From NCBI RefSeq assembly GCF_001412615.1, contig NZ_CP013011.1:1440001-1472000 (forward strand): a DNA stretch of 32,000 bases. The letters are read 5' to 3'. Source of the stretch: Pyrodictium delaneyi (GTDB taxonomy: Archaea > Thermoproteota > Thermoprotei_A > Sulfolobales > Pyrodictiaceae). Below are positions 8,637-30,024 of the stretch, one piece after another; within the stretch, counting starts at the first letter, position 1; every line of letters starts with the position of its first letter. The notes below the pieces were generated by a model. That model saw nothing but the letters and a program-made list of their open reading frames with translations. It was not told where the DNA came from and did not search any database. The position numbers and the translations under genes are program-made.

Positions 8637-11600
8637 ATGCCGCCAGAGACTAGGCCACGTTGTGGGCCACCGCCTAGCCGTCTCCCGAGCCTGACTGGTA
8701 CTGACGCCCGGCTCCTTGACGAGTACCTGCCGCCGTTGCCTAGTAGGCAGAGGGTCTACCAGCAAGTCGCCGAAGCGCTCAACGAGATGGAGAAGAGCCA
8801 GGACCCGGTGCTAGTGCTCCTCGTGGCCGAGTGGGGCGAGGGGAAGACGAGCATCTACAATGCGCGGGTGAAGCCCTGGCTGGAGGAGAGGGGCTGGAGG
8901 AGCCTAGAAGCCCGCGCTGCCACGGTAATGGCTCATCTCGCCTCGCTGAGGAGCCGTAGCGAGCGCGACCCAGCGTACCGGCTTATGGCCGCGCTGCTCG
9001 CCGCCGGACTCGAGCAGGAGGGCATGCTGGCAGAGCACGGGGCTCCCGATGCTGCTGGGAGCCTCCGGGAATACGTGGATCGTGTCCTCCGCAGCCTCGT
9101 TCCCCGTGGTGGGAAGCTGATAGTCTTCATCGACGAGCTGGAGGACCTCGTGGCCTCGGCCCGGGAGGAGGAGCTAGCAGAGCTAGTCGCCGGGCTCGTT
9201 GGGATACTCAATGGGGACGTCGAGACCGTCTCTGCCCAGTGCCGTGGAGAGGGCTGCATGCCCGGCTCCTTCCATATAGTGGCTAGCCTCACGCCGCCGG
9301 CCTACAGCAGGCTCATGGGTCTCCGCGACTTCGCCACCGTGGCAGCGAGGCTGCGGAGGAGGATACGCAGCGTCTGGATACAGCCACTACCCCGCCGTGA
9401 GGCTTTCGCCTTCCTCGAGAGCCTCGCCCGCTACACGCTCGGCCGGGGGCTCGACGGGCTACTCGAAGACCATAGCCTCGCCCACGCCGTGGTCTCTGGC
9501 ACCCTGGGGAACATGGGGGCGCTCGTCTCGGCGTTCAGGTACCTCGTCTCCTGGGCCCGCGGCCGTGGAGGCTGCGGCGACGGCGTAGCAGTGCTCTCGA
9601 CTGGCGATCTACTCGAGGCATTGCAGGGACTCACTCTGAGCGTTGGGGGCGCCGAGCTGCCAGCCCTCAACAGCGAGGCCTACGCACGGCTAGCCGAGGG
9701 CTGGGGGGCGCGGGCCCGGCTAGCAGGCTTCGACACTGCCGCCGCCCGGAGGCTGCTAGACGAGCTAGTCGCGCGGGGCACTGTCCCTGTCGAGGAGCTG
9801 GCCGTAGCCATTGGGACCCGACTGAGCGTCGTGGCCGAGATGGTGCAAGAGCTCAACGTGTACGGTGAGCAGTCATGGCCGCGCCGGGAGCTAGGCGTAC
9901 AGAGGCTCGTCCATGAGGTCGTGGAGGCTCCAGCAGTCGAAGACGCGTTCAAGCTGCTAAGGGCCGTGGAGCCGGAGGCTGTTAAGCTCCTCCCCCAGCT
10001 GGCTGGAAGGGAGGAGCAGAAGCCGCTAGAGCAGCTACTCGACTCCCTCGTGTACCTCGACTCGGCTGGCCGGCTCGTAGTAGCGGTGCCCGCTGACGAG
10101 CGCATGGCAGCCGACCTAGTGGCGGACGCGTCGCCGCTAGAGCTGAGCCGCGCAGAGGCCGAGAGGCTCGCTGCGCTGCTGTGGGAGGGCATCTTCTCCA
10201 GGTTGCTGGGCTCCGGTGGTGCCCGGGCCTACATGCTCTCGCCGAGGCTCCAGCGTCTACTCTACGTGAGCCCCGAGCTGAGCTACCTAGACTTCATAGC
10301 TGACCGTGTCGAAAGGCTGCAAGTGATACGCCGCGTCTACACCGAGGCAGGCCGAGGCCACCTAGCAGTAGGTGTCTCAGCCCTCCTTGCTGCAGAGGGG
10401 CTGCTGGCAGAGCCGCCAGCACTGCAGGGCGAGGGCGTCGCACGCGCTGAGCTAGTCCTCCAGGGTGGTGCCCGGGCCAGAGTACTCGTCTATGCTGTGC
10501 CGGGCGAGGTAACCGCCGCGGAGGCCCGTAGACTAGAAAGCCAGGTCATGGCTGCACTCATGAGCGGGTGGCGGCCGCACGCGATACTACTAGTACACCA
10601 TGGCGGAGTGGAGCCGCAGGCAAGGCGGCTCCTAGACGCGCTGGAGGGCAAACTCTTCCTAAAGGTGGTAGAGGCCCCGATAGAGTCAATGGTGTCCCGT
10701 GCCCGGCTCCAGGCTCTGGGCGTCAAGCTCGCCGACGAGGCTGGCGGCGTAGAGGAGGCCCTCCGTGCCGCGGTCGAGGCGGCGAGGGACCCGGGGAGGG
10801 CCGAGGAGTTCGGCTTCGACCCGTTGAGGCTCCACTCGCTGCTACGGGAGCTGGCTGAGGAGATACGGCCCCGGGAGAGGCTGGAAAGAGCGCTAGAGGA
10901 GGGCATAGACGGCGCGCCACTAGTGGTGCGGGACCCCCGCCTAGGCTATGACGTGGAGAGGCCTACCGAGCTTAGCGGCGCACTCCGCTACTTCCTCGTA
11001 GTGCCTAGCACCCGTGCATCGGCTCGGGAAGCGCTCCACGCTGCCTACGAATACGTGATGCGGTATCATCTCTACCGGGGCCCCGGCGGCGAGGGCCGGG
11101 GCCTACTAAGCCCGGACATTGACCGCGGCGAGACACAGACCCTGGAGAAGTATATGCTTCTACTAGCCGCCAACGGGTTCCTCGAGAAGAGCAACGGCAC
11201 AGCGAGAATAGACACGTTGAGCCCTATGGAGCGTAGCGTGCTCCGGGCACTGGAGCAGCTCGGCGCCCGTAGCCAAGAGGTCCCCGCATCCAGGGTCTGG
11301 GAGCTGCTGGTAGTGGAAGCACGTAACCCGGGCACTCGGAGGATGCTGCTACAGGCGCTGGCCCACCGCGGCCTCGTGTCCGCTGCCGCCTCGCGGAGGA
11401 TAGACCCGGAGCGCTCCCGGCTAAGGCTACGTGACGGCGAGGAAGCCGCCTGGCAGCTAATACGCGAGGCCCGGGCCATTGTAGAGGAGATCGAGAACGA
11501 CCCCGAGGCAGCCTCCTGGGGCTATGTGGTCTCCGCTAAGGCCCGCGACTACCGCGCCGGCAGCCTAGAGGAGTTCACCCGGAAGATGTACAGCTTGCTA

Positions 11601-13067
11601 GACACAGCCGAGGAGGCCCTAAAGGCTGGCAATACACTGATGGCGCTGAGGCTTGCCCGCACAGTGCTAGACACCGCGGAGTACGTCAGGGACGAGGTCC
11701 TCCGGGGACACGTGAAGCCCGCCGCCGCCGAGGCCAGGAGGTTACGGAGCCTCCTAGAGGACTATGCGGAGAGGATAGAGGAAGCGCGCCGGGCAGCCGA
11801 AAGGATGCTCGAACAGCTGACCGGTAGCCGTGTACAGCTAGAGGTCGAGGGCTTTGAGAGGCTCCAGGAGGCCCTCCACGCGATAGAAGAGATCGAGGAG
11901 TTGCGGCTCAGCGAGAAGCAGCTAGAGGAGGAGGTGCAACAGCTCTGGGAGGAGGCCCGGCGCCGCCACCCCCGCGACCCAGGGCGCCACCTACCATTCT
12001 ACGTCGGTGGCACTGGCCCCGTGCTACACTTCAACTACAAGCTCTGGCTGCTGGCCAAGAGGCTTGAGGAGCTGGGGCTAGCACGGCTAGGCGAGTCTGG
12101 GCTCGAGGAGGGAGAGTGGCTACGCCGCACAATGCAGGCCCTGGAGACGCTGGTCAGCGAGGCCCGGAGGCTGCTAGAAGAGAGTGCTGAGCTACGCCGC
12201 CGCGCTGAGAGGCTAGCCGAGCGGCTGAGGAGGCTCGGCGTAGAGGCCCCCGCGCCGCAGAGCATCGTGCTGCAGGGGCTAAGCGCGCCCGAGAAGCTTG
12301 GCCTCGGCGAGGCCGAGCAGCTGCTCCAGGAGGCCCGGCGCCAGCTAGAGGAGGGGCGGCGCCCGCTACTGGAGCTCGAGGAGCAGGTGGACCGGCTCCT
12401 AGGCGAACTCGAGCAGCTGGAAGAGCTAGCCGCTGAGGCCGAGAGCTGGATACATGGGCTAGAAGAGGCGGCCGAGCGCGCCAGGGCAGCAGGGCTAGCT
12501 GCTAGCCAGAGGCTGCGCGAGGCCCTAGAGGACCTAGCACTGGCACTCGACCAGGCCCAGGCCATGAAGGGCAAGGCCCAGGCAGTGCTACAGCAGCCCG
12601 GCAGACTGCTAGACGCGCTCAGGGATGCCCGCAGCCTTGTCGAGAGCGCGCTCACCCTGCTACGCGACAGTCTAGAGAGGAGCAAGAGGATACACGCGGA
12701 CGCGGTAGCGGAGGCCGAGAGGCAGCGCCAGGCCCTAGAGGCCGAGGCCCAGGCGCTCCGCGAGGCGCTGGAGAGGACCGGGGCAAGGGCGCCACAGCCG
12801 CCACGCAGCAGCGACCCGTTCACCGCTATAGCTGGGCTCCACGAGTACATCGAGAAGCTGCGACGCATGGCGGCTGAGGCGGGGGTACTATCGCAGATGG
12901 AGATGGAGGCCTACCGGGTGGTGGCCCTTGAGCGTAGGAGGCGCGGCGAGCTGCTGCTACGAGAAGCAGCCGAGCTAGTAGCGGAGAGCCTCGGCATAGA
13001 CCTCGAGGAGGCTCGCCGTATACTCATAGCCCTCATCGAGAAGGAGATACTCGAGCCAAGGCTATAG
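8637..13067 (+). CDS. Very large P-loop NTPase (KAP/ORC-like AAA-type N-domain) with winged-helix-like segments and a long C-terminal coiled coil; function unknown
   Basis: Walker A VAEWGEGKTS (nt 8835-8852) and Walker B KLIVFIDELED (nt 9117-9146). An AAA-lid-like segment reads IRSVWIQPLPRREAFAFLESL. HTH-like segments include LLDELVARGTVPVEELAVAIG, SVLRALEQLGARSQEVPAS and the C-terminal LVAESLGIDLEEARRILIALIEK. Residues from about 950 to 1400 are E/R/L/A heptad-rich. Continuous codon-like coding runs over 4.4 kb. The true start could be downstream (in-frame TTG in PPLPS, or the ATG in NEMEKS). Confidence 0.8.
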   Translation: MPPETRPRCGPPPSRLPSLTGTDARLLDEYLPPLPSRQRVYQQVAEALNEMEKSQDPVLVLLVAEWGEGKTSIYNARVKPWLEERGWRSLEARAATVMAHLASLRSRSERDPAYRLMAALLAAGLEQEGMLAEHGAPDAAGSLREYVDRVLRSLVPRGGKLIVFIDELEDLVASAREEELAELVAGLVGILNGDVETVSAQCRGEGCMPGSFHIVASLTPPAYSRLMGLRDFATVAARLRRRIRSVWIQPLPRREAFAFLESLARYTLGRGLDGLLEDHSLAHAVVSGTLGNMGALVSAFRYLVSWARGRGGCGDGVAVLSTGDLLEALQGLTLSVGGAELPALNSEAYARLAEGWGARARLAGFDTAAARRLLDELVARGTVPVEELAVAIGTRLSVVAEMVQELNVYGEQSWPRRELGVQRLVHEVVEAPAVEDAFKLLRAVEPEAVKLLPQLAGREEQKPLEQLLDSLVYLDSAGRLVVAVPADERMAADLVADASPLELSRAEAERLAALLWEGIFSRLLGSGGARAYMLSPRLQRLLYVSPELSYLDFIADRVERLQVIRRVYTEAGRGHLAVGVSALLAAEGLLAEPPALQGEGVARAELVLQGGARARVLVYAVPGEVTAAEARRLESQVMAALMSGWRPHAILLVHHGGVEPQARRLLDALEGKLFLKVVEAPIESMVSRARLQALGVKLADEAGGVEEALRAAVEAARDPGRAEEFGFDPLRLHSLLRELAEEIRPRERLERALEEGIDGAPLVVRDPRLGYDVERPTELSGALRYFLVVPSTRASAREALHAAYEYVMRYHLYRGPGGEGRGLLSPDIDRGETQTLEKYMLLLAANGFLEKSNGTARIDTLSPMERSVLRALEQLGARSQEVPASRVWELLVVEARNPGTRRMLLQALAHRGLVSAAASRRIDPERSRLRLRDGEEAAWQLIREARAIVEEIENDPEAASWGYVVSAKARDYRAGSLEEFTRKMYSLLDTAEEALKAGNTLMALRLARTVLDTAEYVRDEVLRGHVKPAAAEARRLRSLLEDYAERIEEARRAAERMLEQLTGSRVQLEVEGFERLQEALHAIEEIEELRLSEKQLEEEVQQLWEEARRRHPRDPGRHLPFYVGGTGPVLHFNYKLWLLAKRLEELGLARLGESGLEEGEWLRRTMQALETLVSEARRLLEESAELRRRAERLAERLRRLGVEAPAPQSIVLQGLSAPEKLGLGEAEQLLQEARRQLEEGRRPLLELEEQVDRLLGELEQLEELAAEAESWIHGLEEAAERARAAGLAASQRLREALEDLALALDQAQAMKGKAQAVLQQPGRLLDALRDARSLVESALTLLRDSLERSKRIHADAVAEAERQRQALEAEAQALREALERTGARAPQPPRSSDPFTAIAGLHEYIEKLRRMAAEAGVLSQMEMEAYRVVALERRRRGELLLREAAELVAESLGIDLEEARRILIALIEKEILEPRL

Positions 13068-13347: not shown

Positions 13348-14046
13348 TTGCGGGGTAGCCGTAGGCTTGACGAGTATCTGCGTGAGCTCGGCAGCGCTGT
13401 AAGGAACAGACAGGTGGATGTAGAGGCACTCGTGCGACGCATAGTCGAGGAGGCTGTACGGGAGGCCGGCTGCAGCACAGTCGCTTCTCCGGATCCTGGC
13501 CTCCTGGAGAGGCTAGAGCGTATCGAGCAGCGGCTAGAGAATATTGAGAAGAGGCTTGAGCGGCTAGAGCGCCAGGGCAGCGGGGGCTTCTCGAGGAGGG
13601 ATATCGAGGAGCTCGCCCGAGCTATAGCATCCGCCGTAGCTGCTGCCGTCAAGCCCCCAGGAGCCCAGCAGAGCCGGAGAGACGAGCCACGCTGGCTACG
13701 CGCCGTCGTGGAGCGGCTCCGGGGCCGTGGCTATGTTGTTCTCCGCGAGCTTCCGCCGGAGATCCGGGAGGGCTTCGACCCCGAGGATGCCCGGAGACGC
13801 GGCCTAGTAGTAGCCAGTATCGGGGGCGAGACCGTCGTATTCACCAGGCAAGGGCTCCGTGACTTCTTGGAGCGGCTCCGGGGGCTTCGTGCGAGCGACG
13901 AGTATGAGGCAGAGGCTCAGCTGGGCCGGTACAAGCTGCTATTCCGCCTCCTCCGGGAGGAGGGCCTCGTCTACTACGCTGGGCCGGGTCGCGGCTGGGT
14001 GCTCCAAGGCCAGCTAGAGAGACTAGCCCATGAGGAGCTTGTATAG
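13348..14046 (+). CDS. Hypothetical coiled-coil protein (possible partner of the giant NTPase)
   Basis: A 232-aa ORF with no internal Met codon, so it must start at TTG 13348 or GTG 13414. It carries the perfect heptad stretch LLERLERIEQRLENIEKRLERLERQ. The C-terminal half (RGYVVLRELPPEI...VVFTRQGLRDFLERL) looks globular. Confidence 0.55.
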   Translation: MRGSRRLDEYLRELGSAVRNRQVDVEALVRRIVEEAVREAGCSTVASPDPGLLERLERIEQRLENIEKRLERLERQGSGGFSRRDIEELARAIASAVAAAVKPPGAQQSRRDEPRWLRAVVERLRGRGYVVLRELPPEIREGFDPEDARRRGLVVASIGGETVVFTRQGLRDFLERLRGLRASDEYEAEAQLGRYKLLFRLLREEGLVYYAGPGRGWVLQGQLERLAHEELV

Positions 14047-14553: not shown

Positions 14554-15041
14554 ACCCAGAACACCCTGGCCCTATCCGCTCCGCAGACTAGATAGAGGTT
14601 AGCACGCTAGCAGGCATTAGCTGCAACATAATCATCACATGCTCCCGCACCGATTATCTAACGACAGGAAGAATAGAATTTTAGGGTGAACGAGCAACTA
14701 ACCCCCGCTCCCAGTGACTAGTTATGTTGCTTCGAATCCCGATTCACAATCCTTGACACCGGGCAGCTAAACGGCCGAAAGCAATAGAGCATGCCAGTAT
14801 CACAAACCCCTCTATGACGCGAGTCAATCCACTGTCCTAGCAATTACTGTGCTGGTTACACTGTCATACCCTACCATTTACAATTCAACTCCCTAAGGCT
14901 AATACGCGGGGACAGGGCAGCATACCAACCCGATGTACTAGCTACACTCTGCTACCTGACACACAAATCTATTTATCATTATTTATAACTTGGATAGCCG
15001 AATGTCGTATATACCTGGAACGCTAAACTATATTGAATACC

Positions 15042-15056
15042 TATATATATATATAT
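15042..15056. repeat. (TA)7.5 microsatellite; also the probable TATA region of the 15100 gene
   Basis: TATATATATATATAT lies 44 nt upstream of GTG 15100. The SD-like GGGGTGAT at 15084-15091 lies between them. Confidence 0.7.
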
Positions 15057-15099
15057 CAACATCATGTATAGTTCACCCGCGCCGGGGTGATACAGCCTG

Positions 15100-16719
15100 G
15101 TGCTCCTACACGGCTCAAAAACTGCAGCAATGCTAACTATAGCACTGATACTAGCCGCGTCATCAACTATGCTTGTAAAGCATTACACTACAGCAACCAT
15201 CTACGAGGATAGGTCTACTATTGTTACGGCAACTCGGCCTCTGATATCGAGAGGCCCACCGGTACTAACGATAGAGGTTAGCGACCAACAAGGAAGACCA
15301 GTAGACTTCTACGCTACGATAAGCATGCCTGCTGCCAACGGCAGTCTCATACACAGTAAGCCAGTGCGCGGTCATGGTCAAGCCACGATAGAGCTAACGA
15401 AGTACGCCGAGGAGCTATCAAGGCTGTTAGACTCGATAAACGCGGCAGGCAAACGGCTCCAAAAGATAGGGATACTAGTACTCCTAACCAGTGTAGAGAT
15501 AGAGAACGGCAAACCAGTAGTAGTCACCGATGCGTTTACCGTACCCATTAGCCTAGACGTGTTGAAGCCAGGCTACCATATAAAGGCAGTACACAAGTTC
15601 ACCCCCAAGGCCAAGACTGAGGCTAAGCAGGCGAAGCCACAGATACAGCTAGCAGCACCAAAACTAGACCTAGCCACGAGCCCCGTAGAGCCCACAGTCA
15701 ACGGACCATGCGTAGACTACGGCTTTAGCGTCACATGCTACTACTGGGAGCTAGACCAGATAGTATACCCTCCAAGCGGCGTAGACAACACCGTAAACAT
15801 GCCCTTCACAATAGTTGATGTAGCCCCAAGCAACGGCATCGACTCGCCAGCACAGAAGACAGAATCTGTGATAGTAAGTAACGTTATACGACTCCAGCTA
15901 TACACTATAGAAGAAGTAGAGATAGGGCTAGTAGTGGACTTCACACTGCTAGGCGGGTCTGTCACGATACCAGGACCAGCATTCGTAGACAGTATAAGAA
16001 ACTATGATACCTCCATCAAGACACTCCTAGACGTACAGTGTACATTCCTGAATACCCTCAACAGCCTGCCTGGGTCAAAGTGCACGCTGAATGGTATCGA
16101 TGCAGCTATCCCCGACTACTATTATGCAGCATACCTGGCTACTGGTGCTGAGGGTAGGCTATGGGTAGCAAAATATAACCTTATAGCTGAGACCTGCGAC
16201 CTGGACGGCATTTGCTACACTGAGAGTATTGGTAGCAACTATGCAGCATACTTTATACCCATCTACAATATCTTCGGGTACTTCGAACCCTACGTGGAGG
16301 TACAGGACGATTACTACAACTATGGTGGCTACCTCTACCGTGTGCTCGACGACTTAAGAAGCAAAATGGAAACAGCCACTATACTGAGCGGATACTATAA
16401 CGATAGACAATTCAACTACTATAGTGTAATCGTTGACGTGAATGGAGAGACGTACATGTCGGTATCTCTCCCCGTAGGCTCCGTAGCGGCTATAGTCTCG
16501 GGACTCAACCTGCCAATGGCTGCTACAACACTCAGCTTTACAGTAACATCTAGCGTGTACTACATTACCGCGTATGAAAGCCTATCGACTGTAACTATAG
16601 ATATAGATACGTCGGTATACCCAGGTATGCAGTATAGCAGTGAAGTCCTGAAGACCGATATGATGGTTGTACCAGATAACGGCGTCTTCACAATCCCGTT
16701 GATGGCCTTAAGACCGTGA
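15100..16719 (+). CDS. Secreted or membrane-anchored hypothetical protein (orphan, Tyr/Asn/Thr-rich)
   Basis: N-terminal hydrophobic anchor AAMLTIALILAASSTMLV. Three closely spaced Cys pairs (CVDYGFSVTC, CTFLNTLNSLPGSKC, CDLDGIC) suggest extracellular disulfides. GC is lower than the flanks. I recognise no family. Confidence 0.65.
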   Translation: MLLHGSKTAAMLTIALILAASSTMLVKHYTTATIYEDRSTIVTATRPLISRGPPVLTIEVSDQQGRPVDFYATISMPAANGSLIHSKPVRGHGQATIELTKYAEELSRLLDSINAAGKRLQKIGILVLLTSVEIENGKPVVVTDAFTVPISLDVLKPGYHIKAVHKFTPKAKTEAKQAKPQIQLAAPKLDLATSPVEPTVNGPCVDYGFSVTCYYWELDQIVYPPSGVDNTVNMPFTIVDVAPSNGIDSPAQKTESVIVSNVIRLQLYTIEEVEIGLVVDFTLLGGSVTIPGPAFVDSIRNYDTSIKTLLDVQCTFLNTLNSLPGSKCTLNGIDAAIPDYYYAAYLATGAEGRLWVAKYNLIAETCDLDGICYTESIGSNYAAYFIPIYNIFGYFEPYVEVQDDYYNYGGYLYRVLDDLRSKMETATILSGYYNDRQFNYYSVIVDVNGETYMSVSLPVGSVAAIVSGLNLPMAATTLSFTVTSSVYYITAYESLSTVTIDIDTSVYPGMQYSSEVLKTDMMVVPDNGVFTIPLMALRP

Positions 16720-16948
16720 CAAGAATAACTTGCTTACACAAAGACATGGCCATCGATGGTACCTAGAACGTAGATGCATACTCTCTTTTTCGCAGCTGTA
16801 TTCCCCGTAAGCCGTTTTGCTTGATGGATAGCTGCCGCGCAGTGAAAGACCGGGCTTATGGCTAGCTAGCCCTATTATCCTGTGCCCATGTTGGAGGACT
16901 GACAAGGATTAATAATATTTAGGCTAATGTGTTAAGCCATTAGTGTGA

Positions 16949-17560
16949 ATGCCTACATGCTCTGAGAGATGTGGCCCCAAGCACCAGCTTAGCGGAGGGT
17001 TGGGTACGATCTTGTCTAGTAGAGTTGTCCTAGTACCGTTCCACCTGGCCAGGCTTGGTAAGAGGATAGTGGGCCTAGACGCGTTCTTCTGGCCAAGCCT
17101 AGAGAAGAGGTACCGGGTAGTTCTCCTAGTACACCCTGCTGAGAGGCTAGGAGAAGCTGCCATAGAAGGCTGTCAACTCCCTGCACAAGTGGATATAGGA
17201 AGTCAAATCGGCGAGATACGGGAAATCGCGCAACGTAAGCCAGAGGGACCTCGGGCACCACGTGCTACTATGCGGCGGAGGTTTGCCTGGTTCCTGTTGC
17301 CACTCAACATGCTCCGCGATATGCTGCGCAGCGAAGCCGAGGAGTTCCAGTTATCGGAGGAGCTGCAAGCTGTGGGCCTTGCCAAGATTCTTAGAGAGTT
17401 GGAGCCTCTCGGGGAGACCCGTTACGCAGTCTTCGAGCCAGTGGAGGAGGATGGCGAGAAGCTGCTCTTACCCGTTGACGATCATATGAGGAGGATATAT
17501 CGGGAGCTAGCACGCCGCGACCAGGGCTATAGAAGGGCAGCAAGCCAGGCAGGATGCTAG
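16949..17560 (+). CDS. Hypothetical protein; only the C-terminal ~97 aa (from ATG 17270) look protein-like
   Basis: MRRRFAWFLLPLNMLRDMLRSEAEEFQLSEELQAVGLAKILRELEPLGETRYAVFEPVEEDGEKLL has ordinary composition. The upstream 107 codons are doubtful. No family recognised. Confidence 0.35.
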   Translation: MPTCSERCGPKHQLSGGLGTILSSRVVLVPFHLARLGKRIVGLDAFFWPSLEKRYRVVLLVHPAERLGEAAIEGCQLPAQVDIGSQIGEIREIAQRKPEGPRAPRATMRRRFAWFLLPLNMLRDMLRSEAEEFQLSEELQAVGLAKILRELEPLGETRYAVFEPVEEDGEKLLLPVDDHMRRIYRELARRDQGYRRAASQAGC

Positions 17561-17685: not shown

Positions 17686-17832
17686 GCCACGGCTAGCACG
17701 TAGTGTGTTGCCGAGGCTATATCTTCTATGCCCGACTGATGGCACCAAACCATTAGGACTCTATTATTGATGGCCTTCTCCTGCGTGCTAACGACGGTCA
17801 CAGCTAATAGTTCTAAGCCTTGAGTAGGCTTC

Positions 17833-17840
17833 CTAAATAT
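17833..17840 (+). promoter_or_regulatory. Candidate TATA box (CTAAATAT) for the GH114-like gene
   Basis: It lies 39 nt upstream of GTG 17879 and 66 nt upstream of ATG 17906. Confidence 0.4.
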
Positions 17841-17878
17841 GCCGCTATCCTTGCCGCACTACCCCTCTGGGTGCTATA

Positions 17879-19028
17879 GTGCGCTATGTTAAAAGACTTA
17901 GAGGCATGAGCGATTTCGCCGTATTCCTCGCCTTGTTAGTGTTGCTCATACTCCTCATCATCCTTGCTTCCCGGGCTAGCCTGCCCTACACCCCTTCTAT
18001 GACTGCCACAGTTACTGTCACCAACACCGCAACATTTGATGAATCTGTAACTAGTACAAGAGCCAATCTGCAGGAGAAAGCTACAACAAAGACGCTAACA
18101 TTTTACAGAGACGCGGACAATGACAGAGACTGTAACAGCTACCGTTACAGTGACAGCCACTATAACGGCTACAAAGATTGCTGCTACTGCCTCCTCCTGG
18201 TGCAGTATCGCTTGCTACTACCTGACAAATATCGAGTCGGAGCCTTTACTGGCCAGGCACTGGACTGTAGCAGTGATAGAGCCAGATGAAGCAAATGACA
18301 CACTGCTAATGGAGGTGAGGAAACGCAGCGACCTGGTTCTCGCCTACCTAAACGCCGGGTATGCCGAGGAGTGGAGGAGCTACTGGGACGTAGTCAAAGA
18401 TAAGCCCTGGATCCACGGCACCACCATGTACGAGGGCGAATACTATGTGGAATATTGGCACACTGAGTGGAGGAAGATACTTGTAGAGTTAGCAACGAGA
18501 TACCTGGCTAGGGGGTTTCAGGGCATCTATCTAGACAACATCGATGCAGCCGAGCTGCTTGCTATAGAGAGACCCTCTTGGGCTCAGGGAGTAGATCCAC
18601 GAGAAGCCATGATAGATCTCGTCTGTAACGTGTCCAATGCCGTCAAAGCCGTAGACCCTAAGGCAAAGGTGTACCTCAATATCGGTGGTGCAGTGAACCT
18701 GCTGTACAATGACCGCCTCCTAGGCTGCATAGATGGGGTGCTACGAGAGGAGCTGTGGAGCCACCCAGGCCCAAGCGGACCCGAGCCACAGGACCCTTGG
18801 GAAACTCTCGCAGCGCTCGACGCGCTAGCCTATGCACACAGCCACGGGAAGACCGTGCTAGTGGCGGATCCCGTGAACGACTTAAAGGAGGCTTGGAGTT
18901 TCTGTGTAAAGGCCTGGAGCCATGGCTTTATTCCAGTTCCGCAGCCAGCCTGGGCTCTTGACTACAGCGCTCCACCTCCACCAGTTTGGTGCAGTTGCAG
19001 CACCTCAATGGTCAAAAGCAACAAGTGA
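17879..19028 (+). pseudogene. Frameshifted gene: signal anchor plus Thr/Val-rich stalk (frame A) joined to a GH114/TM1410-like glycoside-hydrolase TIM-barrel domain (frame B, +1)
   Basis: Frame A (17879..18289) encodes FAVFLALLVLLILLIILA plus TATVTVTNTAT, then degenerates into C/Y/D/R-rich nonsense. Frame B is open from 18099 and continues the stalk (TETVTATVTVTATITATK) into the catalytic domain. The only place to switch is the TTTT run at 18101-18104. Confidence 0.7.
18120..19028 (+). CDS. GH114-like (endo-alpha-1,4-polygalactosaminidase / TM1410-like) hydrolase domain ORF
   Basis: VLAYLNAGYAEEWRSYW, YYVEYWHTEWRKIL and ARGFQGIYLDNIDAAE match my recollection of the GH114 family core (..YlsiGeae.yR.YW.. 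/ ..GfDGvyLDnvD..). There is no signal peptide and no SD before ATG 18120. Confidence 0.7.
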   Translation: MTETVTATVTVTATITATKIAATASSWCSIACYYLTNIESEPLLARHWTVAVIEPDEANDTLLMEVRKRSDLVLAYLNAGYAEEWRSYWDVVKDKPWIHGTTMYEGEYYVEYWHTEWRKILVELATRYLARGFQGIYLDNIDAAELLAIERPSWAQGVDPREAMIDLVCNVSNAVKAVDPKAKVYLNIGGAVNLLYNDRLLGCIDGVLREELWSHPGPSGPEPQDPWETLAALDALAYAHSHGKTVLVADPVNDLKEAWSFCVKAWSHGFIPVPQPAWALDYSAPPPPVWCSCSTSMVKSNK

Positions 19029-19301
19029 GGGTATCATCCGGAGACCATATACCCCGACGCAATATTTATCACTGTTTGATATACTATAGCTAGCTAATTC
19101 GAAACCCTATCTAACTCTAACAAATCCTACTCTAAACGGAATAGAGTTTGTTTTCGCTTTCGCAGGAGCCACGGTGCTTCTTGGCATTTTTGTTTACACG
19201 ACCGTAATACCTCCATACCTTGTACCCTACATAGTTGAGTTGATGTTAAATACTGGACCCCCGGTCCAGGCCCTTCTCCTGCAAGAGGAGGCGAGCAAGC
19301 T

Positions 19302-20438
19302 ATGTGGACTAGCAGGGTAATAGCCATAGCTATAGTTGCTTTCATCGCTATCATAGCTGCCTATATGCTTACAAGCGGAGGGGGAGAACCAGCCTCTACC
19401 GCAACACCTATGACCACCACTATCACAGTCACCAAAACCGCTACGACTACTATGACCACTACCGCGGTCGAGACCACTACAGTGTCAAAGACGGTGACAT
19501 TCACCCAGACTGTGACCCAGACAATACCACAGGTAGAAGAGAAGCTAGTCCTAGTCGATGCGCTAGGCAGAACAGTCGCTGTCGAAAAACCCGCTGAGCG
19601 TGTCGTCGCTCTAGCGCCCTCGATAACCGAGGATATTTGCTCTCTTGGGCTCTGCAGCCGGCTGGTAGGCGTCGACAGCTTCTCCAGGGATGTGCCCGGC
19701 GTCCCCGAGGGCGTCGTGGATGTTGGCGGCTACTGGCAGCCTAGCAGCGAGAAGGTAGCCGAGCTAAAGCCGGACCTAGTACTGGCATGTAGCGGTGTAT
19801 CCGCCCAGGAGCAGATGGCACAGCAGCTCGAGGGGCTCGGTATCCGAGTATTCTTCCTTCGCTGCGACCAGGCCCGGGGCTTCGACGACATCTACTGGGA
19901 TCTACGTGCTATAGCGACACTACTGGGCAAGCCCGAGGCTGCCGATAAGGTGATAGAGCTGATGGAAGAGAGGGTTAGCGCGCTAGAGAAGAAGCTAGCC
20001 AATACTACGAGACCTGGTGTAGCCCTGCTAGTTTACCTCCAGGAGAACGGCGCCTGGGTAGCCGGCGGCGGCACATTCCACGACACAGTGATAGCTGTTG
20101 CTGGCGGCTCTAACGTGTTTCACGGTCTCTACGGCTGGCAGATGGTTGGCTACGAGGAGCTAGTATCCCGGGACCCCGACTACATAATAGTGACCGGTAT
20201 GACTCCTGCTGACTTCAACCGCACGATAGCGCTCGCGGAGAAGACGCCACTACGGGAGACTAAGGCCTTCCAGGAGGGCCATGTATGTGTCCTCTACGGC
20301 GCCGCCACCGACGCGCTTAACAGACCATCACCAGGCGTAGTAGACGCCGCCTATCTGTTGGCCTCGATACTGCACCCCGACCTAGTGGAGCCGCCGGAGA
20401 GGCTAGCCGGCAACTATACTTGTATGCACCAGGGCTAG
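19302..20438 (+). CDS. ABC transporter substrate-binding protein (BtuF/FepB-like, iron-siderophore/cobalamin class), membrane-anchored with a Thr-rich stalk
   Basis: TM anchor VIAIAIVAFIAIIAAYML and stalk TTTITVTKTATTTMTTTAVETTTVSKTVTFTQTVTQT. The binding domain reads RVVALAPSITEDICSLGL...VGVDS...LKPDLVLA. Confidence 0.85.
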   Translation: MWTSRVIAIAIVAFIAIIAAYMLTSGGGEPASTATPMTTTITVTKTATTTMTTTAVETTTVSKTVTFTQTVTQTIPQVEEKLVLVDALGRTVAVEKPAERVVALAPSITEDICSLGLCSRLVGVDSFSRDVPGVPEGVVDVGGYWQPSSEKVAELKPDLVLACSGVSAQEQMAQQLEGLGIRVFFLRCDQARGFDDIYWDLRAIATLLGKPEAADKVIELMEERVSALEKKLANTTRPGVALLVYLQENGAWVAGGGTFHDTVIAVAGGSNVFHGLYGWQMVGYEELVSRDPDYIIVTGMTPADFNRTIALAEKTPLRETKAFQEGHVCVLYGAATDALNRPSPGVVDAAYLLASILHPDLVEPPERLAGNYTCMHQG

Positions 20439-20463
20439 CCCGCGGCAGGGACGTGGCGAAGCC

Positions 20464-21441
20464 TTGCACACGCGGCGTGTTTTTGCAGCACTAGTCGCCT
20501 TGGCGGCACTGCTCTTCCTAGCAGGTCTAGCCGTGGGCCCGGCCGGGTTCCGTAACCCCCTGGACCCTGGGTCCTGGGACCTGGTGCTCAGGCTCCGGCT
20601 GCTCCGGGGTCTTCTCGCTCTAGGCGTGGGAGCGGCGCTGGGGGCGGCCGGGGCCTTCATGCAGTATAGCGTCTCGAACCCATTGGCGAGCCCGAGCATC
20701 CTAGGAGTCTCGCCAGGCGCGCTCGCCGCCAGCGTCCTAGTAATGCTCGCGTGGAGGGGCTCGCCACCGCTCGGAGCCCCTCTCCTTGCCGGGATGCTGG
20801 GAGGCTTCGCTGCCTACGCCGCCTCGGCCGCCCTAGCCGCCCGGCTCGGGTTCACAAGGGTAGGCCTAGTCCTAGCAGGCGTAGCTGTCTCCAGCACACT
20901 CTCCGGCCTCTCGAGCCTTCTCGTTCTCCTGGCTGAGGCGAGGCTCCGTCTACCCGCCTCATTGATGCTTCTCGGCAGCTTCGCCTACGCAACCCCCGAG
21001 ACCGTCTACGTCGCTCTAGCCTCATCTGGTGCCGGCCTAGTCGCGGGACTCGCCCTAGCCCGAGGACTCGACGCAATATCCTACGGAGACGAGACAGCAT
21101 CCGCTATGGGATATAGCCCGGGGCAGATCCGGCTCGCTGCGAGCCTCACCTCAGCCGCCCTGACCTCTGTTTGTGTCTACGCCGCCGGGATAGTGGGGTT
21201 TGTCGGCCTCGTAGCCCCTAACACCGCGCGTCTCCTTGTAGGCGGCCATCCTAGGGCTAGTTTGCCCGCCTCCCTACTCCTCGGCGCAGCCACCACGCTG
21301 GCTGCAGACCTGGCCGGGAGACTCACAGCGCTAGCTCTAGGGCTTGGTGAAGTACCGGCTGGGCTCGTTACAAGCGCCGTGGGGGGTCTGTTCCTGGCCT
21401 ACATGCTCCTTCGGGGAGCCGCTGGGGGAGAAGAACAGTGA
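20464..21441 (+). CDS. FecCD/BtuC-family ABC permease
   Basis: A 325-aa polytopic protein rich in A/L/G, with typical FecCD length and position. It overlaps the ATPase gene by 4 nt. Confidence 0.85.
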   Translation: MHTRRVFAALVALAALLFLAGLAVGPAGFRNPLDPGSWDLVLRLRLLRGLLALGVGAALGAAGAFMQYSVSNPLASPSILGVSPGALAASVLVMLAWRGSPPLGAPLLAGMLGGFAAYAASAALAARLGFTRVGLVLAGVAVSSTLSGLSSLLVLLAEARLRLPASLMLLGSFAYATPETVYVALASSGAGLVAGLALARGLDAISYGDETASAMGYSPGQIRLAASLTSAALTSVCVYAAGIVGFVGLVAPNTARLLVGGHPRASLPASLLLGAATTLAADLAGRLTALALGLGEVPAGLVTSAVGGLFLAYMLLRGAAGGEEQ

Positions 21442-22220
21442 CAGCAGAACTGAAGGCTCTAGGGGTATACGCTAGGCATGGTAGCAAGGTCGTACTGGAA
21501 GACGTCACCATGGAGGCACGGCCCGGCGCAGTCACAGTAGTCCTTGGACCCAACGGTGCGGGGAAGACCACACTCCTCAGAGTGCTTGCTGGCCTCCACG
21601 TCCCGGCCCAGGGCCGTGTCTTCATCGGGAACCGGGACGTCTACAAGCTACCCCGCATGGAGAGAGCCAGGCTTATCGCCTACGTTCCGGCTGTGCTTGA
21701 ATCCCCAGGGCTCGGCCAGACCGTGGAGGAGTTTGTCGCTGCTAGCCGGTACCCGCTCCACCCTGGGCCCCGCCTAGGCCCCCAGCCAGGTGACCTGGAG
21801 GAGGCGCAGAGGCAGCTCCGCCGAGTAGAGGCGGAGAAACTAGCCCAGCAGAGCCTCGGAAAGCTGAGTAGTGGCGAGAAACAACGTACACTCCTAGCCC
21901 ATGCATTAGCCCGTGACGCTGATGTACTGCTCGTAGACGAGCCTACTAGTTTCCTCGACCTGAGGGGCCGGCTGCTCGTCTACAAACTGCTCCACGAGGA
22001 GGCCCGCCGGGGCCGCGTCGTGGTAGCGGCGACCCACGACATGATGCTTGCAGGGCTCTATGCTGACCAGGTGGTTCTCCTTTCCCAGGGCCGGATAGTA
22101 GCCCAGGGACCTCCCAAGGATATACTCCACCCCCGGCTTCTAGAAAGAGTGTTCCAAGTCAAGGTTGAAATGACTAGACTCGGTGACAAGCACATACCGG
22201 TACCTGTAGACATTACATGA
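21438..22220 (+). CDS. ABC transporter ATP-binding protein (FepC/BtuD-like)
   Basis: Walker A GPNGAGKTT, signature LSSGEKQR, Walker B VLLVDEPTSFLD and H-loop ATHDM. Confidence 0.9.
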   Translation: MTAELKALGVYARHGSKVVLEDVTMEARPGAVTVVLGPNGAGKTTLLRVLAGLHVPAQGRVFIGNRDVYKLPRMERARLIAYVPAVLESPGLGQTVEEFVAASRYPLHPGPRLGPQPGDLEEAQRQLRRVEAEKLAQQSLGKLSSGEKQRTLLAHALARDADVLLVDEPTSFLDLRGRLLVYKLLHEEARRGRVVVAATHDMMLAGLYADQVVLLSQGRIVAQGPPKDILHPRLLERVFQVKVEMTRLGDKHIPVPVDIT

Positions 22221-27391: not shown

Positions 27392-27823
27392 CTAGAGGCC
27401 TTCTTCCTTTCGTATCTTTTCCGCGTATCGCTCCGGGGTGAGCAGTTTCTCCAGCTCCTTCTCGTCGCTCATCCTTATCTTGAACATCCAGCCCTCGCCG
27501 TAGGGATCCCTATTCACGAGCTCCGGCTCGTCGTATAGCCTCTCGTTGACTTCGACTACTTCGCCCGAGACCGGGGCGTAGATGTCAGCAGCAGCCTTCA
27601 CGGACTCGATGCTACCAACTGCTTCGCCAGCTTTGACATTGGAGCCAGGCTCTGGGAGCTCTACACCCACAATATCGCGCAGCTTCTTCTGCGCGTAGTC
27701 GGTTATACCGATGACTACCACATCGCCCTCGCGCTTGACCCACTCGTCGCTCTCCGTGTAGAGCCTGTCCTTTAGGATCACGTAGTCGCCTACACGTATC
27801 TCATCCACCAACCCTCTACACAC
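27392..27823 (-). CDS. gcvH: Glycine cleavage system protein H (lipoyl carrier)
   Basis: [18 protein letters not shown] and the lipoyl-lysine motif [24 protein letters not shown]. Confidence 0.9.
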
Positions 27824-27991
27824 CCCGCAGAGAGATAGGCCATGCTTATCTCTCGAGAGCCGGGTGCACTAAAGCCTCCTGGAGATTAACCTGGGTTGTT
27901 CTCTCCTAAACCGTATCGCCAACTAACCGGGAGTTGATGTCAAACACGTGGTCGGCTACGTGGCGGTATGTGATGAAGTAATGCTATTATT

Positions 27992-28759
27992 GTGTCTGTG
28001 TCTTCGAGCCAACGTGGCCTGGGCCTATGCGTCGAGAGGCGGGAGCGGGGCAGCCTGATGAGTAGGAGACTCGAAGTGGGTGGCCCAGAGAATGTGGCTG
28101 GCAGATGTAACGCTCGGCTGGCGTTATTAGCGGTCCTGTTCTCCGCTATATCAGCTGTCTTGACGGTACTAGAGCTCATGGGTCTCACGGATAATCTGAA
28201 CTACTTGATTTTCCACTCTATTCCTCCACAGGGATCAGTATTCGTTAGGCTATTGTCTCTAACGGCAAGCGTTGCTGCATTCATAGTTTATGCCGCTATA
28301 CTTGTAGTTTACGATATTGCTAAGTTTGGTAAATTGAGGCTACAGACAGTTGCGCTAGGCATATCTTTGGCATCCTCTATGATAGTAGTTGCGGTACTGA
28401 AAGCACTATTACAAGTACCTAGACCTGGGGAACAACCTCTACATTACCCATTTCTACAGGCACTCCTAGTCTCTGATTACTACGCATTTCCTTCAGGCCA
28501 TACTGCAAGAGCGGTAGTGGCTGCATACTATATCGGGAAGAGGCAGAAGCCATACTTTAGAGCGGCTTTATGGATCTGGGCATTCAGTGTAGCAGCAAGC
28601 CGAGTACTGCTGGGTGCGCACTGGGTGAGCGATGTCATAGCTTCAACTGCTATAGGTCTCGCCACGGCACTTATAGTAGACTGTACAGCAAGGTACTGGG
28701 TGCGGGTTTACAATAAGTTTCTGGGAAGAATTAAAGTGTTGAGACTTAGCCTAGACTAG
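27992..28759 (+). CDS. PAP2-family (type 2 phosphatidic acid / polyprenyl-diphosphate) phosphatase, membrane protein
   Basis: The three PAP2 motifs are present: KALLQVPRP, PSGH and SRVLLGAHWVSDV. There are several TM segments. The probable true start is ATG 28058 (MSRRLEV...). GC is lower than average. Confidence 0.8.
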   Translation: MSVSSSQRGLGLCVERRERGSLMSRRLEVGGPENVAGRCNARLALLAVLFSAISAVLTVLELMGLTDNLNYLIFHSIPPQGSVFVRLLSLTASVAAFIVYAAILVVYDIAKFGKLRLQTVALGISLASSMIVVAVLKALLQVPRPGEQPLHYPFLQALLVSDYYAFPSGHTARAVVAAYYIGKRQKPYFRAALWIWAFSVAASRVLLGAHWVSDVIASTAIGLATALIVDCTARYWVRVYNKFLGRIKVLRLSLD

Positions 28760-28970
28760 TTCATGCGCGGATAGTTACGGGTGTAGGCCACACCGACCTG
28801 TTTATCGTTAAAGGCTAGAAAATCGTATAGGATTCACGTTTGCTTGACAACGTAGGAGTTGATATGGTGTTTGTTGTTTGCAAACCTACCGGACTCTATG
28901 CCGGGAGGAACACTAATAATCCTCTCAGGGAAGCTATTTGGTGTAGCTGACGTCTAGAGTACACTAGGCC

Positions 28971-28978
28971 TTTAAAGT
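28971..28978 (+). promoter_or_regulatory. Candidate TATA box (TTTAAAGT) for nuoA
   Basis: It lies 26 nt upstream of ATG 29004, consistent with a leaderless or near-leaderless transcript. Confidence 0.45.
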
Positions 28979-29003
28979 ACGTTGGTAAGAGAGGGGCCAG
29001 TTC

Positions 29004-29375
29004 ATGGCGTACGATGCTATAATAGCTGTTGCAGTCGTACTCACAGTTGTGCCCCTCACTTTGCTGCTTGTTTACGCGTTTCTATCCCGGGTTACCCGAG
29101 GCCCGGATCATGTTTACAAGAGACTCCGTTATGAGGCAGGTAATCCACCACGTGGAGCAGCCCGGATACCTACCATATACCAGTACTTCGGCTACATACT
29201 GATATTCGTCGCCCTCGATCCTGTCTTTATGTTGCTCTTCGTCTTGCCCGCCGCTGCAGGAGGTCAATGGCTCAAGGCAGTACTTTTGAGTATGGCATCA
29301 GTAGCCGCTATACTCCCGCCTATAGTATATGCTGCTAGGTATGCCCGCCGCCGTGAGTACTGGAGTCTTCCATAG
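29004..29375 (+). CDS. nuoA: NADH-quinone oxidoreductase subunit A
   Basis: RYEAGNPPRGAARIPTIYQYFGYILIFVALDPVFMLLFVLP matches the NuoA/ND3 core (YECG....yyl.ailFiiFD). Three TM segments. Confidence 0.85.
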   Translation: MAYDAIIAVAVVLTVVPLTLLLVYAFLSRVTRGPDHVYKRLRYEAGNPPRGAARIPTIYQYFGYILIFVALDPVFMLLFVLPAAAGGQWLKAVLLSMASVAAILPPIVYAARYARRREYWSLP

Positions 29376-29391
29376 AAGGGTGAGACGAGCC

Positions 29392-30024
29392 ATGGTTCAT
29401 GGTGACTGGAGGCGCGGGCTCATACTAGTAGGCAATCTCGAGGAAGCCGCTGAGCGGGCCGCACGCTGGCTAGTAGAGAAGACGCCGATAAGAACACTGA
29501 GGGATTGGGCCACTAGCTTTAGTCTCTGGCCCGTCCACCTTACCACGAGCTGCTGTGGAGCAGAATTCGCCGCCCTTTACGCCCCGAAGTACGATGCTGA
29601 GAGGCTTGGTAGCCTCCCCTTTACTCATCCTCGTAACACGAACCTGATGTTGATAGAGGGCACACTAACGCGGAAGATGGCACGGGTTGCCCGTATCACC
29701 TGGGAGCAGATGCCATGGCCTAAGTTCGTCATAGCTATGGGTGCTTGTGCGTTCACTGGAGGCTTATTCTACAATAGCTATAACATCGTCTTGGTACAGG
29801 ACGTGCTTCCCGTCGACTACTACGTGCCCGGCTGCCCCCCACCCCCCGAGGCTGTTGCAGACGCTTTGATAAAGCTTCAGAAGAAGGTCCGGGAAGGCAA
29901 GTGGAGGCCCCGCGACGTAGAGGACAAGGGGAAGCTGGAGGAGCTGATGCAGCCAGTCTACACGAAAGCCGAGCGTTATAGAGAAAGTGTAGTAAGCTGG
30001 AGAAGACTGCTTGAAGGACTTTAG
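29392..30024 (+). CDS. nuoB: NADH-quinone oxidoreductase subunit B
   Basis: SLWPVHLTTSCCGAEF, AMGACAFTGG and VDYYVPGCPPPPEA supply the N2 cluster ligands. The track ORF starts at 29329 inside nuoA. The ATG at 29392 lies 14 nt after the nuoA stop. Confidence 0.85.
   Translation: MVHGDWRRGLILVGNLEEAAERAARWLVEKTPIRTLRDWATSFSLWPVHLTTSCCGAEFAALYAPKYDAERLGSLPFTHPRNTNLMLIEGTLTRKMARVARITWEQMPWPKFVIAMGACAFTGGLFYNSYNIVLVQDVLPVDYYVPGCPPPPEAVADALIKLQKKVREGKWRPRDVEDKGKLEELMQPVYTKAERYRESVVSWRRLLEGL

Follow-up and report, generated by a model that had tools for sequence, protein, structure and literature searches.

The described proteins that come closest to the one considered here are SlaB of Sulfolobus, the archaeal fusexins and other class II fusogens, the secretins and aerolysin-like pore formers, and the transthyretin-like or carboxypeptidase-regulatory-like domains, while among its true relatives is PAE1478 (Q8ZX42) of Pyrobaculum aerophilum. 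We analysed a stretch of 32,000 nucleotides of the Pyrodictium delaneyi Su06 chromosome (NZ_CP013011.1, positions 1,440,001 to 1,472,000 of the forward strand; hereafter the window, numbered from its first letter), and in it the gene Pyrde_1457 (15100..16719, + strand), which encodes a protein of 539 amino acids.

SlaB occurs in the same class of organisms and, like the form that we infer for Pyrde_1457, is exported, rich in β-sandwiches and tethered to the membrane. It is anchored by a C-terminal helix that follows a coiled coil, and its gene lies beside slaA, whereas Pyrde_1457 has its predicted anchor at the N-terminus, no coiled coil and no partner gene; the Foldseek match of its model to SlaB (8qox_B) is weak (probability 0.20, template-modelling score, hereafter TM-score, only 0.13-0.15). 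Archaeal fusexins are β-rich, exported proteins with disulfide-locked hairpin tips that are found on horizontally mobile DNA. Pyrde_1457 resembles them in its β-rich body, its predicted export and its putatively disulfide-locked hairpin tip, but it has neither C-terminal transmembrane helices nor a mobile-element context, and the Foldseek searches of the PDB and BFVD returned no class II fusogen or fusexin. What recalls the secretins (GspD, PilQ, InvG, phage pIV) and the aerolysin-like proteins is the presence of long β-hairpins in the Pyrde_1457 models. As to the transthyretin-like and CarboxypepD_reg domains, the first strand of domain 1 of Pyrde_1457, LTIEVSDQQGRPV, resembles in our reading their usual start, but this domain has an inserted helix and no such Pfam model matches any member of the family described below.

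PAE1478, matched by phmmer through its cluster representative P0016 (E 4e-13), is truly homologous to Pyrde_1457. PAE1478 and its relatives share with it the length, the N-terminal helix, domain 1, the linker, two invariant cysteine pairs, a facultative third pair and the C-terminal 'vPl...P' ending, at an identity of only 24-30%. Pyrde_1457 differs in that it lacks a conserved N-x-T, the DDxPxDGxG motif (in the place of which it has QDDYYNYGG) and a strongly hydrophobic hairpin near the C-terminus.

Pyrde_1457, a constrained gene of an unnamed family

The reading frame at 15100..16719 is uninterrupted and opens with GTG. Its product, found by exact-sequence look-up (ALL01500.1 / WP_055409526.1; isoelectric point 4.8), was already known from GenBank as a 'hypothetical protein', and is identical in P. 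delaneyi strain Hulk. Comparison with the homologous gene, for a 93%-identical protein, on an 85%-identical contig (L001) from a hydrothermal-vent metagenome gave 100 synonymous and 36 non-synonymous differences, with a ratio of non-synonymous to synonymous rates (dN/dS) of 0.094. From this ratio and the existence of full-length homologues we conclude that Pyrde_1457 is a real gene under strong purifying selection, beyond what chance would produce. The choice of start codon, and hence the first ten residues of the protein, is uncertain, because L001 has GTC at the position of GTG15100 and its sole canonical start is the ATG equivalent to position 15130; counted from that conserved ATG15130, the protein would have 529 residues. 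A (TA)n run about 44 nt upstream of GTG15100 (15042..15056, +), recognised by the usual promoter geometry, is a candidate archaeal TATA box, and the motif GGGGTGAT, 8 nt before GTG15100 (15084..15091, +), which includes GGTGAT and is kept in L001 as GGGGGGGTGAT, is Shine-Dalgarno-like; as read from the letters, both are placed sensibly for an archaeal promoter and ribosome-binding site ahead of GTG15100. A TTTTT run 67 nt past the stop codon (16786..16790, +) is a candidate archaeal termination signal.

The first-pass annotation, made by a model from the window's letters alone, had described the product as an orphan with no recognisable family motif. The second part of this description stands for the curated collections, since none of Pfam, NCBIfam, PHROGs and PADLOC contains a match to Pyrde_1457, and the PDB sequences, searched with Pyrde_1457 and with the family profile, returned nothing (the best match was a collagen adhesin, E 0.11). 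It does not survive, nor does the orphan status, an exhaustive comparison by phmmer with 1.84 billion cluster representatives, in which an unnamed family emerged: 27 proteins matched at E <= 1e-3, and for 17 the value was <= 1e-10. About 17 of the matches are full-length (506-577 aa, plus one of 731 aa) and co-linear with Pyrde_1457 nearly end to end (alignment A1); for 15 proteins of 506-731 aa the phmmer E values run from 6e-23 to 1e-12, and the best-scoring stretches jointly span residues ~11-539. The word-indexed protein search had a sole match, a 93%-identical protein from deep-sea vent metagenomes, also when the family alignment served as the query. A clear match to a characterised family was looked for and not found: 23 family members compared with Pfam at E < 0.1 gave nothing beyond four scattered chance matches, each of a single member.

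The phyletic distribution, which the first-pass annotation had proposed to determine, covers Pyrobaculum, Desulfurococcales and other Thermoprotei. The named relatives, all of them 'hypothetical protein', are PAE1478 and a second paralogue of P. aerophilum (WP_116420434), together with proteins from a Pyrobaculum metagenome-assembled genome (MAG), several Desulfurococcales/Desulfurococcaceae MAGs and 'Thermoprotei archaeon' MAGs. Species-representative genomes scanned with a subgroup alignment (the full family alignment being too divergent for a pattern search) contained five paralogues in one 'Sulfolobales' MAG, two of them in tandem, and three in one Thermoprotei MAG; Pyrde_1457 itself found no match in these genomes, in which its region is seemingly not represented. 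Taken together, the sequence comparisons place Pyrde_1457, as a divergent member, with PAE1478 in a family that is undescribed, restricted to Thermoprotei and given to forming paralogues: Pyrde_1457 shows the full-length homology, the N-terminal helix followed by domain 1 and the two cysteine pairs, and departs from the majority of members (11/18) in its lack of a strongly hydrophobic C-proximal segment. The family has no name, no Pfam or NCBIfam model and no paper, and a literature search for PAE1478, Pyrde_1457 and the accession numbers yielded no papers that mention them. It lies outside every described family, though its likely kind, that of an archaeal exoprotein, is familiar.

Two members depart from the common layout. 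The 731-residue protein P0011, from a Desulfurococcales MAG, has an extra ~190 residues at its C-terminus that are rich in Tyr, Asn and Gly and match no Pfam family, and the copy at locus L010 is split into two overlapping open reading frames (ORFs).

Architecture and predicted fold

In the full-length members (alignment A1), a few basic residues precede a hydrophobic helix, which is followed in order by two short conserved strands, domain 1, a disordered linker and a body of ~340 residues. The N-terminal anchor or signal claimed for Pyrde_1457 by the first-pass annotation agrees with the hydropathy of residues 8-27 (Kyte-Doolittle mean 1.97), which form a hydrophobic stretch, and with a helix at residues 6-25 of the AlphaFold2 model (15115..15174, +), which may be a signal peptide or a signal anchor. 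An equivalent segment begins between residues 1 and 11 in 17/17 full-length homologues, and every full-length member with a complete N-terminus (17/18) has one. A type IV pilin-like (class III) signal, judged by eye against the published motif, was rejected, as the window reads ...GSKTAAMLTIAL..., with no K/R-G/A before the hydrophobic stretch; K-A-L occurs there in some homologues only.

Domain 1 (residues ~53-175; 15256..15624, +) is modelled as a β-sandwich with an inserted helix at residues 100-113, at a predicted local distance difference test score (pLDDT) mostly of 90-95, and its strands between residues 55 and 174 (pLDDT > 90) agree with the earlier view of the N-terminal ~170 residues as a β-sandwich. 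It is the best conserved region of the family, with a mean pairwise identity of 35% versus 19-30% elsewhere. Conservation is lowest (19%) in the K/A/P/Q-rich linker (residues 176-198; 15625..15693, +), predicted to be disordered (pLDDT < 50 at residues 181-195). The remainder (residues 199-539; 15694..16716, +) appears, from the secondary structure (DSSP) and pLDDT of the model, as a large all-β body with a Tyr-rich second half: tyrosine makes up 12.6% of residues 341-539 versus 2-5% in the first 340, and the Tyr-rich runs DYYYAAY, DDYYNYGGYLY and YYNDRQFNYYS, quoted earlier as marks of the C-terminal part, are all present.

The body contains the six cysteines, in three close pairs as had been observed, although only the C-X8-C spacing was counted correctly, the supposed X14 and X6 being X13 and X5. 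The first putative disulfide, Cys204...Cys213 (C-X8-C; 15709..15738, +), has both its cysteines in 17/18 full-length members and neither in the eighteenth. The second, Cys314...Cys328 (C-X13-C; 16039..16083, +), is invariant (18/18). The third, Cys366...Cys372 (C-X5-C; 16195..16215, +), placed by the model at the tip of a long hairpin, is facultative: both cysteines are present in 8/18 members and both absent from 10/18, never one alone, and one of the eight carriers, P0004, has a third cysteine in that stretch. Because the pairs are kept or lost together, these cysteines seem to behave like disulfide partners. The family is also enriched in N-glycosylation sequons (70 observed versus 47 expected from shuffles), and an N-x-T just ahead of the first strand of domain 1 is positionally conserved in 13/21 homologues.

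Some 60-80 residues before the C-terminus, a strongly hydrophobic segment of 30-45 residues (hydropathy > 1.6 in 11/18 members), with the motif IPVGAL...L.VGI and a Pro/Gly-rich centre, forms what looks like a helical hairpin. It is much weaker in the Pyrobaculum copies and in P. delaneyi, where the weakly hydrophobic SLPVGSVAAIVSGLNLPMAATTLSF (residues ~451-485; 16450..16554, +) is its degenerate counterpart, modelled with short helices at residues 459-467 and 473-476 (pLDDT 53-80). The absence of a C-terminal transmembrane segment, already noted in the first-pass annotation, is confirmed by a hydropathy peak of 1.53 near residue 453, below the transmembrane level. An archaeosortase substrate (PGF-CTERM and similar) was rejected as well, as 55-80 structured residues follow the hydrophobic segment and no NCBIfam CTERM model matches.

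The AlphaFold2 model, built with a 23-sequence alignment, has a mean pLDDT of 82.6 and a predicted TM-score (pTM) of 0.84, with 437/539 residues at pLDDT >= 70, and is nearly all β save for the N-terminal helix and a few short helices. Its most prominent element is a β-hairpin of 24 + 16 residues (344-367 / 372-387) with C366 and C372 at the turn, which is reproduced when residues 196-539 are modelled alone. Modelling followed by a Foldseek search had been suggested as a check; it provided this confident model and matches of a small domain, but no convincing whole-chain neighbour in either database. Against the PDB nothing was found at E < 1e-3, the whole-chain alignments having TM-scores of 0.04-0.15, and three BFVD matches below 1e-3, all at a TM-score <= 0.17, are not convincing. 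The only geometrically reasonable matches are the transthyretin-like sandwiches 3e8v (probability 0.91, TM-score 0.53) and 1tlm (probability 0.66, TM-score 0.41). Because both vanish once residues 1-195 are removed, they are consistent with domain 1 being a transthyretin-like sandwich, an indirect assignment, as the matched query residues are not reported. The fold as a whole, as predicted, is a confident model that has no known structural relative. The model of residues 196-539 is poorer and different (pLDDT 66 versus 83, pTM 0.64, strands of 25-33 residues), which suggests that the N-terminal part may be needed for the fold.

Location of the protein and competing readings

The place of the gene in the chromosome bears on what the protein may do. 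The first-pass annotation had made it the first gene of an AT-rich island, and indeed the GC content falls from ~0.65 to 0.47-0.49 exactly at the gene, which has a GC of 0.48 and a GC at third codon positions (GC3) of 0.52 versus a GC3 of 0.63-0.77 in the flanking genes. Comparison with the syntenic region of Pyrodictium abyssi (L024; AP028907.1) by blastn and tblastn shows homology through a NUDIX gene up to 14556 and again from 17027, the flanks aligning at 83% (NUDIX side) and 72% (downstream side). Between them lies a lineage-specific segment of 2,470 bp and 47.7% GC (14557..17026), which holds Pyrde_1457 with its promoter and terminator regions and has no P. abyssi counterpart. P. abyssi has at this site 1,017 bp of 63.3% GC with an unrelated gene for a 264-aa protein (L024 9100-9894, - strand), which matches no Pfam family and whose N-terminus, VRGLSQTTAVALLTLIAVVSAG..., resembles a type IV pilin-type (class III) signal. 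The site beside the NUDIX gene thereby suggests a swappable slot for surface proteins.

The relatives occupy equally solitary positions. An all-versus-all BLAST of the ORFs of ten loci (L001-L010) and the window, followed by Pfam searches of the neighbours that included later loci, disclosed no recurrent partner gene; the family genes stand singly among housekeeping genes such as those for AcnX subunits, aminoacyl-tRNA synthetases, isocitrate dehydrogenase, ABCE1, PNP, MatE and others.

From these data we propose, as a reading that we hold to be reasonably probable, that Pyrde_1457 is a Sec-targeted, membrane-anchored envelope protein, which would serve as a variable, environment-facing structural or adhesive component and not as an enzyme or as a subunit tied to an operon. 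A surface protein that is secreted or anchored in the membrane, as the first-pass annotation had suggested, is also what best fits the N-terminal helix, the co-varying cysteine pairs and the sequon enrichment of the family. The basic N-terminus and the hydrophobic helix would guide the chain across the membrane so that the N-terminus stays inside, and the helix would then be retained as an anchor or cleaved. The β-sandwich (~53-175) and the flexible linker would carry the large, rigid all-β body outside the membrane, where two invariant disulfides and a facultative one would pin it, as would suit an extracellular temperature of ~90-100 C. The hydrophobic helical hairpin near the C-terminus could, in most homologues, make a second membrane contact, which would be degenerate in the P. 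delaneyi protein. That the component would be variable is suggested by the stand-alone gene, the paralogue expansion, the fast divergence and the slot occupied in P. abyssi by a different putative surface gene.

Several observations weigh against this proposal. First, Pyrde_1457 itself is poor in sequons (1 versus 3.3 expected) and lacks the N-x-T of its family. Second, hyperthermophilic Crenarchaeota also form disulfides inside the cell, so the cysteine pairs alone are no proof of export. Third, a second low-GC stretch of the window (27500-29500; 0.48-0.52) contains genes for core membrane proteins, a PAP2 phosphatase (GC3 0.46) and a nuoA-like protein (GC3 0.48), at 28-29.4 kb; because of these, composition by itself is no proof of foreign origin, and the synteny break is the stronger argument. 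Fourth, any specific role, be it adhesin, matrix or S-layer component (the roles first put forward), structural protein or receptor, is a guess. Fifth, Pyrde_1457 has no entry in the supplementary tables that accompany the one whole-cell proteome of P. delaneyi, in which 939/2,037 proteins were detected under two growth conditions (PMC8105010); for a membrane or extracellular protein, and with two growth conditions only, this absence is weak negative evidence.

The sequon deficit and the hydrophobic hairpin of the homologues, which could be a monotopic anchor, also lend themselves to the view that the protein is tethered to the membrane but faces the cytoplasm, or is monotopic, with an intracellular or lipid-related role and disulfides of the intracellular kind known in Pyrobaculum and Aeropyrum. 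We regard this as improbable, though less so than the other alternatives: the positive charges before the first hydrophobic helix predict that the bulk of the protein is outside, the sequons are enriched family-wide with a conserved N-x-T, and the body has the all-β, Tyr/Thr/Asn-rich, low-Lys/Arg make-up typical of archaeal exoproteins.

A virus-derived protein, which the first-pass annotation had also entertained, would be left over from, or carried by, a virus or mobile element, for instance a receptor-binding or membrane-fusion protein, brought in on the AT-rich segment. The lineage-specific segment with its low GC in surroundings of ~62-65% GC, the patchy distribution and variable copy number of the family, and a tyrosine recombinase gene 0.6 kb downstream of one paralogue (L004) would fit such an origin. 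However, none of 50,697 phage and virus genomes matched by tblastn, two scans of IMG/VR contigs and the search of PHROGs were likewise negative, and the viral models of BFVD and the absence of class II fusogens among the Foldseek matches, as reported above, tell the same way. The window has no integrase, tRNA or Rfam match and the ends of the segment carry no direct or inverted repeats, while the homologues sit singly between housekeeping genes and the gene is under strong purifying selection. We consequently give this origin only a slight probability.

Slighter still is the probability that the protein forms an oligomeric β-barrel, as an aerolysin-type pore-forming toxin or a secretin-like envelope channel, in which the long hairpins would build the barrel and the hydrophobic helical hairpin would be a membrane-inserting loop. 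The robust hairpin of 24 + 16 residues in both models and the hydrophobic hairpin between β segments in most homologues are in keeping with it; the full-length model weakly matches the aerolysin-like Dln1, the lamprey protein LIP and 3kog (E 4e-3 to 6e-2), and the top 32 PDB matches of the truncated model are all secretins (E 7e-5 to 1e-2, probability up to 0.98). Yet the TM-scores of these matches all lie within 0.07-0.18, and their root-mean-square deviations are 18-43 Å. Those to the aerolysin-like proteins reach a probability of <= 0.12 and a TM-score of <= 0.16, and those to the secretins (TM-score 0.08-0.18, deviation ~20 Å) come from the poor model with its implausible strands of about 30 residues, whereas the confident full-length model gives no secretin match. 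Comparison by hhalign of the family profiles (A1, A4) with an alignment of six diverse filamentous-phage pIV secretins (A5) returned a probability of 0.1%, and no family member matches the secretin domain PF00263 or a Pfam family of pore-forming toxins, aerolysin and ETX-MTX2 among them. Moreover, the hairpin tip is polar and predicted to be locked by a disulfide, and the hyperthermophilic archaea concerned are not known to have an outer membrane. The likeness to secretins, in our view, arises from the long hairpins of a model of low confidence. A bolder version, in which the family is a new fold that oligomerises through its disulfide-tipped hairpins and hydrophobic helical hairpin into a crenarchaeal envelope channel or pore, the P. 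delaneyi copy having been acquired horizontally, is a shade more doubtful again; if true, it would make this pore-forming family a functional analogue of secretins and β-pore formers in organisms known for neither.

Weakest of all is the idea that Pyrde_1457, for instance as a carbohydrate-binding protein, joins the GH114-like hydrolase to build or trim an exopolysaccharide matrix. The presence of a GH114 / TM1410-like gene 1.4 kb downstream on the same strand and the low-GC stretch common to both genes might suggest such a partnership, but comparative genomics largely refutes it, as two vent-metagenome loci (L013, L014; 82-83% nucleotide identity) keep the Pyrde_1457 homologue and have unrelated DNA in place of 17747-19246, the region that holds the GH114-like gene, P. 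abyssi keeps a GH114-like gene and has no Pyrde_1457, and no other family locus examined has a GH114 neighbour. The two genes are moreover separated by the T-run and by a distinct AT-rich stretch that resembles a promoter, and the GH114-like ORF appears frameshifted.

Neighbouring genes and significance of the family

The gene next to Pyrde_1457, a conserved basic ORF of ~180 aa (17015..17560, +), finds no counterpart in Pfam, NCBIfam, PHROGs or PADLOC. Its product is ~70% identical in L013 and L014, where it accompanies the Pyrde_1457 homologue, and 63% identical in P. abyssi, where it is present in the absence of Pyrde_1457.

The polysaccharide-hydrolase-like gene that the first-pass annotation saw downstream was correctly recognised: the ORF at 18120-19028 is GH114-like (Pfam E 4e-14). 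It begins within a Thr-rich stretch, and it looks frameshifted or N-terminally truncated, because a different frame immediately upstream (17879 to ~18100) encodes a typical N-terminal membrane helix and a Thr-rich linker. The P. abyssi homologue is also split (233 + 133 aa), and the vent-metagenome relatives have no GH114-like gene. Past the island lies an iron-siderophore-type ABC transporter operon (19302-22220; Peripla_BP_2, FecCD, ABC_tran), whose binding protein has the combination, usual in crenarchaeal exoproteins, of a membrane helix and a Thr-rich linker; in P. abyssi a further gene, for an amino-acid permease, separates the operon from the GH114-like gene. On the other side of Pyrde_1457, a gene at 8637-13067 encodes a 1,476-aa protein with a long SMC-like coiled coil and, at the N-terminus, a P-loop region weakly like that of Orc1/Cdc6. 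This protein has no PADLOC match, and its 1,479-aa P. abyssi orthologue has no Pfam match on record; its gene is followed by a gene for a 232-aa coiled-coil protein (13348-14046).

At the loci of the relatives, a LysE gene (two lineages) or a Lys_export gene (Pyrobaculum) adjoins the family gene in 3 of ~12 contexts (L015 5263-5922, L017 7790-8545, L011 6576-7295), which is probably a coincidence. Two related MAGs have the family gene as an insertion between those for the large and the swivel subunits of AcnX (L007 7619-14449, L006 8670-12521); in one of them it occurs as two tandem copies separated by a coiled-coil gene, and the same coiled-coil gene stands upstream of another paralogue (L004 34-432).

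The present analysis delimits a family of ~17 full-length, unnamed proteins absent from Pfam, and provides its signature of disulfides and architecture, a confident model that has no structural relatives, and the position of the P. delaneyi gene in a replaceable slot. The family is one among many uncharacterised families of exoproteins, and its value is in that respect moderate. For structural biology it is a tractable object in the search for a new fold that is stable at ~100 C. Apart from S-layers, pili, threads and cannulae, little of the envelope of the hyperthermophilic Thermoprotei has been charted, and P. delaneyi has no cannula genes (PMC12518558). For the microbiology of these organisms, Pyrde_1457 and its relatives are a candidate variable surface component, which may bear on attachment or on recognition by viruses.

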